A stretch of DNA of 41,441 nt, from IMG/VR virus record IMGVR_UViG_2541047739_000012. One strand, given 5' to 3'. This document shows positions 25,556 to 27,123 of the stretch, in pieces (position 1 is the stretch's first letter; each line of letters begins with the position of its first letter). This DNA is from a virus. Its lineage: Duplodnaviria; Heunggongvirae; Uroviricota; Caudoviricetes. Below the pieces are notes generated by a model, which had not been told where the DNA came from, did no database searches, and worked only from the letters and a program-made list of their open reading frames with translations. The position numbers and the translations under genes were made by a program.

Positions 25556-26437
25556 ATGGAGAAGTCAACTTCCTTTAAGGTGTTTTATGACGCCAATGAT
25601 AAAGAATTGTCAAAGCATGCTATTGACGCTGAAACACTTGGTAAATCAATACTTTCCATGACAACTCTTATTAATAAAGCTGATAGCTTGTTAAATGAGG
25701 GCAACAAATCTGTAAAAATTTTAGTCACTGCCCCCATCCAGAAAGGATCTGTGGGTATTGCATATACTGTAGTGCAACTCCTACCGCATGCAATTGACGT
25801 TCTGCAAACTATCGGGATTGTTGGAACTGTGGGCGCAACAGCTCATGCCACCGCTTTATCGTTAATAAGACAATTAGGCTCAAAAAAAGTTGTTTCGATT
25901 ACCAAAAAAGCAGGAACAGATAAGGCTGTTCTTGAATTTGAAGATGGTGAGATTGAATGCTCATCAGCAGTTGCAACCTTGGTAACTGAGCCAACAATTC
26001 GGGATGCGTTGATTTCTGTTGTTCAGGCTCCTTTAGATGGTAAAGACTCTCCCATTTTTAAAATTGTAGATGAAAATGATAAAGTTTTGCTCAAGCTTGA
26101 AGGAGAGCAAACTGAAGAGATTAAACCCCTTCCCAGAGGGACGCTTTTGACCAAAACAGTTGAAGAAAAAGAGGTTAATGTAAAATTTACCCAAGTTAAC
26201 TTTCATAGTGAGAAGGGGTGGAGGATGGACTACAACCAAGATGAGCACTCCGTACTACTTACAGACTATGAGTTTTTAGCTAAAGTAAGGCAAGCAGAGG
26301 GAACGATCACTAGTGAAGATATGTTTTCTGTGCTTCTAGAAACAACACGTACAACTTCCGCACGAGGACAAACAGAAAAGTATGTTATCAAGAAAGTACT
26401 TCGTCATCGCGTGATTCAAGGGAAAAAATTGATCTAG
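25556..26437 (+). CDS. hypothetical soluble protein, first gene of opposite-strand cargo cassette
   Basis: 293-aa ORF on the plus strand, ATG with SD AAGGA 7 nt upstream; AT-rich codon usage unlike the flanking phage genes; no TM helix or motif I recognise. Confidence 0.6.
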   Translation: MEKSTSFKVFYDANDKELSKHAIDAETLGKSILSMTTLINKADSLLNEGNKSVKILVTAPIQKGSVGIAYTVVQLLPHAIDVLQTIGIVGTVGATAHATALSLIRQLGSKKVVSITKKAGTDKAVLEFEDGEIECSSAVATLVTEPTIRDALISVVQAPLDGKDSPIFKIVDENDKVLLKLEGEQTEEIKPLPRGTLLTKTVEEKEVNVKFTQVNFHSEKGWRMDYNQDEHSVLLTDYEFLAKVRQAEGTITSEDMFSVLLETTRTTSARGQTEKYVIKKVLRHRVIQGKKLI

Positions 26438-26452
26438 CTTTGGTAGAAACTA

Positions 26453-26716
26453 ATGATTCAGCAACAGCTTTTACAAATCGTTTTTTGGTTGGGGGTGCTT
26501 GTAAGTCTCCCGACCTTCTATCGCTTTGTTTATGCTGGTTCCGCGTTGTTGTGGCGTAAAATTTTTCCTACAAAAATCGTAGAACTAAGGTTTTACAGTG
26601 CTGAACGCATGCTTGAAAAAACGATTACTATCCACTTAGATGCTAAAGATGGAAAGAAGATCGTTGAGCTAATTGATGATGCAACCGCGCACAGGCAGTC
26701 AAATAATGAGCGGTGA
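26453..26716 (+). CDS. small single-pass membrane protein (cassette gene 2)
   Basis: 87-aa ORF starting 15 nt after gene 1; N-terminal hydrophobic helix (LLQIVFWLGVLVSLPTFY) followed by a charged tail. Confidence 0.5.
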   Translation: MIQQQLLQIVFWLGVLVSLPTFYRFVYAGSALLWRKIFPTKIVELRFYSAERMLEKTITIHLDAKDGKKIVELIDDATAHRQSNNER

Positions 26717-27104
26717 TAAAAAAAGCATTTTAAGTAGTAATTCTGGTCTAACAACAGGCGGGATTGGCGCAGTTCTAACTACATTGGTACCACTATTGGC
26801 GCCTGACCCTAATAGTGAATGGAGAGCTTTTTTGTATGCCCTCGCCCCATTAGTGTCAGCAATGCTAACCTACATTATGTTGTATGTTATCAATCGACAT
26901 GGACTTGAGTCTCCAGCCGAAGCCGCCCTAAGAAATCGCCTTGAGCGAGATTTAAAAGGTATTGATGAGCAACTGAAAAGCCCTCATCTAAGCGAGAAAT
27001 TTAAAGCTGAGCTTATTGCTGATCGGGAAGAAACTGTTAGAAAGATTGTTAACATTGGTAAGAATGTAGAAGTTTTACCTATTGAAGTTACTAAAGAAGA
27101 ATAA
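26706..27104 (+). CDS. small two-helix membrane protein (cassette gene 3)
   Basis: ATG at 26706 overlaps the gene 2 stop (ATGAGCGGTGA); ORF track's longer form starts at 26673 (ATGs at 26676/26679). Two TM helices (IGAVLTTLVPLLA; FLYALAPLVSAMLTYIMLYVI) then a charged helical C-terminus. Confidence 0.55.
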   Translation: MSGDKKSILSSNSGLTTGGIGAVLTTLVPLLAPDPNSEWRAFLYALAPLVSAMLTYIMLYVINRHGLESPAEAALRNRLERDLKGIDEQLKSPHLSEKFKAELIADREETVRKIVNIGKNVEVLPIEVTKEE

Positions 27105-27123
27105 AACGGCCCTTAGGCCGTTT
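27104..27123. terminator. bidirectional stem-loop between the cassette and Q
   Basis: Perfect 8-bp palindromic stem AAACGGCC / GGCCGTTT with 4-nt loop; U-rich on both strands; sits between the cassette stop (27102-27104) and the Q stop (27140-27142). Confidence 0.55.

Follow-up and report, generated by a model that had tools for sequence, protein, structure and literature searches.

The window analysed here, the whole 41,441-nucleotide stretch of IMG/VR virus record IMGVR_UViG_2541047739_000012, is a lambdoid prophage with a cassette of three plus-strand genes, designated A, B and C, between its antiterminator gene Q and its tRNA and lysis genes (Table 1). A, B and C constitute one translationally coupled, co-diverging unit under purifying selection, and the trio is a horizontally mobile unit, found in accessory slots of temperate phages, on megaplasmids and on other mobile elements, that is dispensable for the phage. 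On the evidence of its sequence, the cassette is most likely a moron that would act at the inner membrane to defend the lysogen, and hence the prophage, from other phages. The particular form of protection that we favour, with a probability of roughly 0.45, is a sensor plus membrane-effector system of the abortive-infection type, which would resemble RexA/RexB in its logic without being a member of that family.

Comparative genomics indicates that the three genes are kept together. When IMG/VR was scanned with aligned homologues of A, 59 loci were obtained. In all of them (59/59), the A stop codon is followed at -22 to +16 nucleotides by the start of an open reading frame (ORF) of 79-95 amino acids whose N-terminal part is a hydrophobic helix, and in all of them (59/59) an ORF of 121-151 amino acids with a hydrophobic segment is found at +211 to +270 nucleotides. 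Among 50 distinct trios, A, B and C covary in their identity to the window copies (Spearman 0.90-0.96), a correlation that signifies co-inheritance and not an independent-sample probability, because the loci are related. The ratio of nonsynonymous to synonymous substitution rates (dN/dS) is 0.04-0.22 for A, B and C against three homologues (0.11-0.22 for B). These ratios, together with the retention of the trio in every related locus examined, identify all three ORFs as real genes, and trio conservation, correlated identities and low dN/dS make B and C obligate partners of A. Gene B is often left uncalled (loci L006-L009 and L014, and some RefSeq records), so that many genomes show two "hypothetical proteins" instead of three, and in the Citrobacter loci the space after A and before C is left empty; databases thus give an incomplete picture of the trio.

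The trio is found in Klebsiella (A 84% identical to the window protein), in Citrobacter (57% identical; the ORF of B is there, yet uncalled by the gene caller), in a prophage of E. coli MIN10 (27% identical), in two kinds of Mu-like phage (37% and 22% identical), including marine Mu-like prophages, on a gut-metagenome element with a Mob_Pre relaxase (31% identical), and on Pseudomonas megaplasmids of 370-640 kb (35.6% identical; thirty plasmid records). In pBM413, the one megaplasmid inspected (locus L022, NZ_CP016215.1 81163-82739), it adjoins IS26/IS6100 and aminoglycoside and macrolide resistance genes. The gut-metagenome element is mobilisable (locus L010; flanking genes at 4951-5835 and 7619-9214), and on it the trio has on one side a 294-amino-acid protein with a transmembrane segment and no family match, and on the other a 531-amino-acid protein with a NERD/PD-(D/E)XK-like nuclease domain that weakly matches the CARF_PDDEXK models of PADLOC; the trio and these two flanking genes may be a small defence cluster.

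Residence on megaplasmids, and in prophages that also carry hok-type toxins, could alternatively mark an addiction or stabilisation module, in which one membrane protein would be toxic and the others would restrain it, favouring retention of the prophage or plasmid. The tight co-divergence of A, B and C and the frequent toxicity of small hydrophobic proteins would fit such a module, but the trio bears no likeness to a known toxin-antitoxin pair and displays neither an antisense RNA signal nor a labile-antitoxin signature. Many modules that look like toxin-antitoxin systems, moreover, prove to be defence systems (Vassallo et al. 2022, PMC9519451). We consider an addiction function very unlikely.

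Distribution among close relatives establishes the cassette as accessory. Three alleles, each at least 99% identical within itself, were counted in 5,426 complete E. coli genomes: 20 genomes have the window allele, 38 that of the MIN10 type and 12 a third one. The induced phage vB_EcoM-606R7, 97.7% identical to the window across the terminase, lysis genes and tRNAs, does not have the cassette; it carries a different Q (229 amino acids) that directly adjoins the tRNAs, with nothing in the slot. Because a sibling this similar is without it, the cassette is accessory cargo and not a lysis or structural gene, and the absence contradicts a conserved lysis or morphogenesis role in all relatives, which the earlier note on this DNA had named as grounds for refuting its reading; that reading survives on this point. 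The cassette has the features of a moron: patchy presence in close relatives, deviant base composition and its own terminator. Elsewhere the trio lies next to genes for a C5 methylase, RusA or DUF968, and also next to a DUF1367 gene.

The Mu-like phages bring a different explanation into play. In these, the trio is located directly upstream of holin and SLT genes or upstream of the head protease gene (in L015 between the Mu F and protease genes), in each case on the same strand, and a phage-serving function in lytic growth could be envisaged, whether in lysis timing after the manner of a holin or antiholin, in counter-defence or as a virion component. The layout of C, with transmembrane helices followed by a charged tail, is holin-like, and the NCBIfam model that matches A, NF053583, has the name "putative phage structural protein". 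Against such a function, tblastn of A against 50,697 deposited phage records was negative, the trio is missing from 606R7 and from many prophages in which the lysis genes are the same, no phage genes are nearby on the Pseudomonas megaplasmids and the Mob_Pre element, the window holds a complete holin/endolysin/Rz set on the strand opposite to the cassette, and holin models fall far below threshold for C. A lytic function is accordingly improbable. Of its particular forms, C as a holin was rejected, its matches to PF23809 (12 bits versus a cut-off of 27) and phrog_565 (E 0.028) being noise from transmembrane composition and its strand being opposite to that of the window holin. A as a virion structural protein is likewise unsupported, on the grounds of the unmatched phage records, the sibling phage, the plasmid and Mob_Pre copies, and the lack of any structural-protein fold match in a structure comparison of its predicted model; the NCBIfam name is unsupported by evidence and should be corrected.

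The position of the cassette defines a slot that holds different cargo in different phages. On its left edge is a block of about 70 nucleotides that is near-invariant in 15 cassette-bearing loci, regardless of the cassette allele, and that is common to prophages with a PF06530-type Q and other cargo (MIN10, APEC O78, SfIV, DLP12 and PA-2); homology stops directly after GTGATTTT, at about position 25469. The block is missing from the prophages with the 229-amino-acid Q (L023, L025 and L087). Without exception, the cargo is flanked by Q and the block and oriented against Q. A variable cargo site between Q and the lysis genes, as the earlier note proposed, is thus borne out by the differing cargo of these five and by the empty slot of 606R7. 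The 339-amino-acid protein encoded in the slot of APEC O78 has no PADLOC match, and its Pfam match is sub-threshold only.

From its position and its linkage to the Q type, the block probably serves the PF06530-type Q as its cognate late promoter/qut region, directing minus-strand transcription toward the tRNAs and lysis genes. If so, late transcription would have its start on the far side of the cassette, with no need to pass through it, the hairpin between C and Q would shield the cassette from read-through out of Q, and cargo placed between Q and its own target site would be hard to lose by recombination. Such a placement would explain why the window Q allele (at least 99% nucleotide identity) is confined to the 20 genomes, out of 5,426, in which the cassette is found, and why a PF06530-family Q is found 17-45 nucleotides after C in 50 of the 59 IMG/VR loci. 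Cargo of the slot may thereby be protected from recombination loss through hitch-hiking. The cassette had been described as running against the flow of the late operon; it is indeed on the opposite strand, but its place between Q and the block puts it outside that operon. For a tR'-like terminator on the minus strand (about 25375-25410) no claim is made, because the window copy folds no better than its shuffles (z 0.46); related loci show clear GC-rich hairpins and T-runs at this position.

Since the slot is known to carry a porin gene, and since the E. coli genomes with the cassette include human-source isolates and several chicken or poultry isolates, one of them labelled APEC (avian pathogenic E. 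coli), a lysogenic conversion unrelated to phages might be supposed, such as envelope modification, stress tolerance or host interaction. The reach of the family to marine Mu-like prophages, Pseudomonas plasmids and the gut-metagenome element disfavours a trait specific to one host niche, and two defence predictors flag A; a conversion of this kind has a low probability, comparable to that of a lytic function.

Protein A belongs to known sequence families, contrary to the statement of the earlier note that no family could be named for it. It matches the PADLOC profile of PDC-S42 (PDLC05015, E 4.1e-27, residues 5-286), as do its homologues from MIN10 (E 2.8e-53) and the Pseudomonas plasmids (E 1.2e-28), it matches NF053583, in full "LAPAL motif-containing putative phage structural protein", with 190.1 bits (cut-off 60, E 5.6e-56), and it is a member of phrog_3243. 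The LAPAL motif is seen only in distant members (for example, ALAPALLAMG in P0220), and the window protein has LGKSILSM in its place. A profile search of 1.84 billion cluster representatives (50% identity) found 2,154 relatives of A at E ≤ 1e-3, 880 of which reach E ≤ 1e-10 and almost all of which are full-length (285-310 amino acids); a further protein-database search with a broad A alignment gave mostly the same close relatives. The window protein has no match in Pfam, and DUF7946 (PF25678) does not match it at E ≤ 1. Among distant members, DUF7946 matches the N-terminal 180 or so residues in 8 of 24 at E ≤ 1, and in 6 of 10 that were scanned individually at E ≤ 0.1 (best score 27.8 bits, cut-off 27); as DUF7946 is without known function, the match adds no mechanism.

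In an alignment of 137 members of the A family, the near-invariant residues are Y11, D12, H21, G64, S65, G87, R149, P159, W222, D237 and F240, among which D12, H21 and S65 are, from conservation alone, a possible Ser-His-Asp triad. The family also shares a Gly/Ala-rich hydrophobic stretch at about residues 64-105 (60-112 consistently hydrophobic), where the maximum Kyte-Doolittle value over 19 residues has a median of 1.57, versus 0.79 elsewhere, and reaches 1.6 in 48% of the members. Owing to this conserved, borderline-hydrophobic segment, A, which had been taken for a plain soluble protein, is better regarded as a cytoplasmic protein with a latent or peripheral membrane-binding segment. The predicted model of A has a dip in confidence at residues 91-96 and a C-terminal beta-domain (approximately 198-285) that appears OB-like, and no relative of solved structure was found by structure comparison. 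When the model was compared with viral predicted structures (BFVD) by Foldseek, a partial match to a 184-amino-acid protein of Mycobacterium phage Pipsqueaks was obtained (E 1.5e-8). A match to a DUF6575 protein in the same database (E 7.8e-8) was rejected, the superposition being poor (TM 0.3) and the DUF6575 model of Pfam matching no member of the A family. Vassallo et al. 2022 (PMC9519451) list DUF6575 as a domain found in validated systems, but no claim for A is drawn from it.

Proteins B and C are small membrane proteins of the kinds that the earlier note had described, single-pass and two-helix, respectively. By hydropathy, B has one N-terminal hydrophobic helix followed by basic residues and a short domain. 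C has a Gly-rich, weakly hydrophobic helix at residues 17-31 and a strong transmembrane helix at 38-65, after which come a highly conserved NRHGLESPAEA motif and two predicted amphipathic helices (70-90 and 97-115). By the positive-inside rule, the soluble parts of B and C would face the cytoplasm, where they could contact A. Searches with B and C against Pfam, PHROGs, NCBIfam and PADLOC gave nothing above noise.

Two independent resources, PDC-S42 of PADLOC and the DefensePredictor cluster WP_021526742.1, class A as a candidate anti-phage gene. WP_021526742.1 is the RefSeq accession of the window protein itself, and Table S10 of the DefensePredictor paper lists that cluster as "Predicted novel defense gene" with a mean log-odds of 5.78 (strict cut-off 4; PMC13092281). 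Both sources treat A alone, whereas the unit described here has three genes, with B and C always present. Further features that fit an anti-phage module are the patchy distribution on mobile elements, the strongly diverged alleles, the combination of a protein of about 290 amino acids with two small membrane proteins, and the location of one distant copy of the trio beside the NERD/PD-(D/E)XK-like gene on the Mob_Pre element.

In the mechanism that we propose, B, with its one transmembrane helix, and C, with a transmembrane hairpin and a cytoplasmic helical tail, would form a membrane complex, to the cytoplasmic parts of which protein A would dock. A, a cytoplasmic or peripheral protein of apparently new fold in which an OB-like C-terminal domain is combined with a latent hydrophobic segment, would sense an infection cue, upon which the complex of A, B and C would permeabilise or depolarise the membrane (abortive infection) or block a membrane step of infection. 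The plus-strand orientation that the cassette shares with the gene for the cI-like repressor would suit expression in the lysogen.

Several points weigh against this reading. Both defence labels on A are computational, and PADLOC models PDC-S42 as a single gene, which means that its authors either did not observe B and C or did not require them. A scan with the sigma-70 consensus found no full and convincing plus-strand promoter upstream of A that would drive expression of the cassette in the lysogen. The co-orientation of the trio with late genes in Mu-like phages (upstream of holin and SLT genes or the head protease gene) suits expression during lytic growth and a phage-serving function. As to the origin of the PADLOC label, the source preprint states that PDC candidates derive from genes embedded in BREX, DISARM or type I restriction-modification systems (bioRxiv 10.1101/2024.01.29.577857); none of the trio loci examined here is embedded in such a system. 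In those parts of the literature that could be searched, the accessions of A and the name PDC-S42 were found in candidate tables only, with no functional account.

An alternative to abortive infection is superinfection exclusion, in which a membrane complex of B and C with tethered A would block genome entry or an early membrane-linked step and the cell would survive. Non-killing exclusion of this type is exemplified by Imm and Sp of T4, SieA of P22 and gp15 of HK97. Such systems typically involve small inner-membrane proteins, the OB-like domain in A could be a binding site for incoming DNA, the distribution of the trio on mobile elements is compatible with exclusion, and the same slot holds lc/nmpC, the lysogenic-conversion porin gene of PA-2 and DLP12. 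Known exclusion systems, in contrast, usually comprise one or two small proteins without a conserved cytoplasmic partner of 290 amino acids, and no homology to known exclusion proteins was found in PADLOC, Pfam or PHROGs. Exclusion and abortive infection cannot be told apart by sequence; we regard exclusion as unlikely, though less so than the addiction, lytic and conversion functions considered above.

Among characterised systems, the abortive-infection reading of the cassette finds its nearest counterpart in RexA/RexB, which is likewise prophage-borne and likewise combines a cytoplasmic protein of about 280-290 amino acids with small inner-membrane protein in a proposed sensor and membrane-effector arrangement. 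Homology was rejected: hhalign of the A family against RexA gave a probability of 0.6%, and BLASTP of C against RexB gave no alignment. The Rex system has two genes, not three, and is located in the immunity region next to cI, whereas the cassette is bordered by Q and the late-promoter-like block; the transmembrane helices number four in RexB, two in C and one in B. Holins and antiholins resemble C in their small size and in their transmembrane helices followed by a charged cytoplasmic tail, and some Mu-like trios abut holin and SLT genes; C differs in its sub-threshold scores, and the cassette differs in lying opposite to the lysis cassette of the window and in occurring also on plasmids. The Tai system was ruled out as a counterpart, having another location and other proteins.

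With respect to position, the earlier note had pointed to stx, which is similarly accessory cargo of the interval between Q and the lysis genes, next to a phage tRNA cluster. That much of the analogy holds, but the likeness is loose: stx follows the late promoter, shares its strand and owes its expression to Q-dependent read-through, whereas the cassette precedes the putative late promoter, sits on the other strand and has its own terminator. A closer analogue is the site of lc in PA-2 and nmpC in DLP12, accessory genes of lambdoid prophages that have the same slot and the same opposite-strand orientation, from a PF06530-type Q to the block. Their product is an outer-membrane porin, unrelated to the three-gene inner-membrane module of the cassette.

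Because the A family is already on two candidate lists, no new gene discovery is claimed. As far as the literature shows, what appear to be new are the obligate grouping of three genes, the hydrophobic segment of A and its conserved residues, the breadth of carriers, and the definition of a slot that extends from Q to the block and is shared with lc/nmpC. Judged by its sequence, the cassette seems to be without homology to any characterised system. A bolder proposal, which we hold to be rather unlikely, is that the trio founds a widespread kind of immune system, built from three components and counting at least 2,154 clusters (50% identity), in which A, without a relative of solved fold, would read a phage cue via its OB-like domain, expose its Gly/Ala-rich segment and open the inner membrane with B and C, by a mechanism unrelated to those of Rex, the transmembrane effectors of CBASS/Pycsar, and holins; the system would be held between Q and its cognate promoter site, a pair that recombination could not separate without killing the phage.

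The gene layout given in the earlier note, namely three closely spaced plus-strand genes that separate Q from the tRNA/lysis block, with the start of C overlapping the end of B, AT-rich DNA and a bidirectional hairpin by the Q stop codon, agrees with the features found (Table 1). The C start codon used in RefSeq, an ATG, overlaps the end of B by 11 nucleotides, and an alternative TTG at 26673 would yield a protein of 143 amino acids. G+C content is 0.38-0.43 over 25400-27400, versus 0.50-0.56 on either side; for the three genes it is about 0.39, versus about 0.51. The hairpin, AAACGGCC-TAAG-GGCCGTTT, sits between the stop codons of C and Q (the latter at 27140), with folding energies of -14.4 and -15.1 kcal/mol on the two strands (z approximately -5 on both; 0 of 200 shuffles fold equally well); its U-rich tail is better on the minus strand, that of Q, the plus-strand U-tail being short. 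Upstream of A, a TAnnTT hexamer has its positions 1, 2, 5 and 6 invariant across 15 loci, and its assignment as a promoter element is tentative because the sigma-70 scan gave no full plus-strand match. To the right of the cassette are Q, RusA and DUF968 genes, and to the left are four tRNAs and the holin and lysozyme genes; terminase, lysis genes, tRNAs, Q, RusA and DUF968 are all on the minus strand. The integrase gene adjoins a tRNA-Ser gene.

Table 1. Features of the cassette region and of the surrounding prophage, with the cargo of the same slot in other phages and prophages
Feature	Carrier	Coordinates	Strand	Remarks
Holin gene	window	24442..24657	-	part of the holin/endolysin/Rz set
Four-tRNA cluster	window	24950..25259	-	Ile/Met, Lys, Thr, Gly; upstream of lysis genes
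Conserved block	window	25400..25469		left edge of cargo slot; TTAAGCTGT...ACCACTCTTAACA...TGCGGACCGCGTTAGTGATTTT; copies at L014 2644-2710, L024 3526-3595, L089 2216-2295, L086 1246-1300, L088 1062-1104
Upstream region, cassette-specific	window	25470..25555	+	-10-like TAAATT 25485-25490; Shine-Dalgarno AAGGA 25546-25550
Gene A	window	25556..26437	+	293 amino acids; PDC-S42 / NF053583 / phrog_3243 family; AAGGA Shine-Dalgarno
Gene B	window	26453..26716	+	87 amino acids; one N-terminal hydrophobic helix (~4-33), then ~50-amino-acid domain
Gene C	window	26706..27104	+	132 amino acids; weak and strong helix, NRHGLESPAEA, two amphipathic helices
Hairpin terminator	window	27104..27123		two-way, between convergent C and Q; eight-pair GC-rich stem
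Antiterminator gene Q	window	27140..27508	-	PF06530 type (E 5e-52); convergent with cassette
cI-like repressor gene	window	34213..34860	+	same strand as cassette
Integrase gene	window	39383..40408		
tRNA-Ser gene	window	40461..40550		
Slot cargo	E. coli MIN10			diverged trio
Slot cargo	APEC O78	L024 3700..4719	+	unrelated gene, 339 amino acids
Slot cargo	Shigella phage SfIV	L089 2405..3827	+	gp49-gp48
Slot cargo	DLP12 of E. coli K-12			porin gene nmpC (plus IS5)
Slot cargo	phage PA-2			porin gene lc

Other genes of the window include a minus-strand ORF of 130 amino acids (29508-29900) with a lipoprotein-type signal (…MLGGCAAK) and no Pfam match, in a second AT-rich patch (G+C 0.40-0.43), which may be another moron, and a minus-strand gene for a Hok/Gef-family toxin (30044-30256; PF01848, E 3e-23), annotated as hokD in related prophages. 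The first tRNA gene of the cluster (25184-25259) is tRNA-Met (CAT) according to ARAGORN and tRNA-Ile in RefSeq records of related genomes, the latter label presumably reflecting a lysidine-modified CAT anticodon. An ORF of 36-41 amino acids in the leader between the block and the tRNAs (25317-25442 on the minus strand of the window; L014 2558-2668) is annotated as "antiterminator" in some RefSeq genomes, and is probably an annotation artefact or remnant rather than a gene.

Uncharacterised candidate defence systems are numerous, and the cassette stands out among them as compact, widespread, structurally novel and delimited. It offers an object for testing of about 1.7 kb, of which the parts, boundaries and conserved residues have been mapped. 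If it is defensive, the unvalidated single-gene candidate PDC-S42 would become a defined three-component system with a new protein fold, and this system would span lambdoid and Mu-like phages, megaplasmids and other mobile elements in the Proteobacteria and beyond. The interval between a PF06530-type Q and the conserved block, with cargo on the opposite strand, represents a second, little-noticed cargo slot of lambdoid phages, which can be mined for more accessory genes, such as gp49-gp48 of SfIV and the 339-amino-acid gene of APEC O78.

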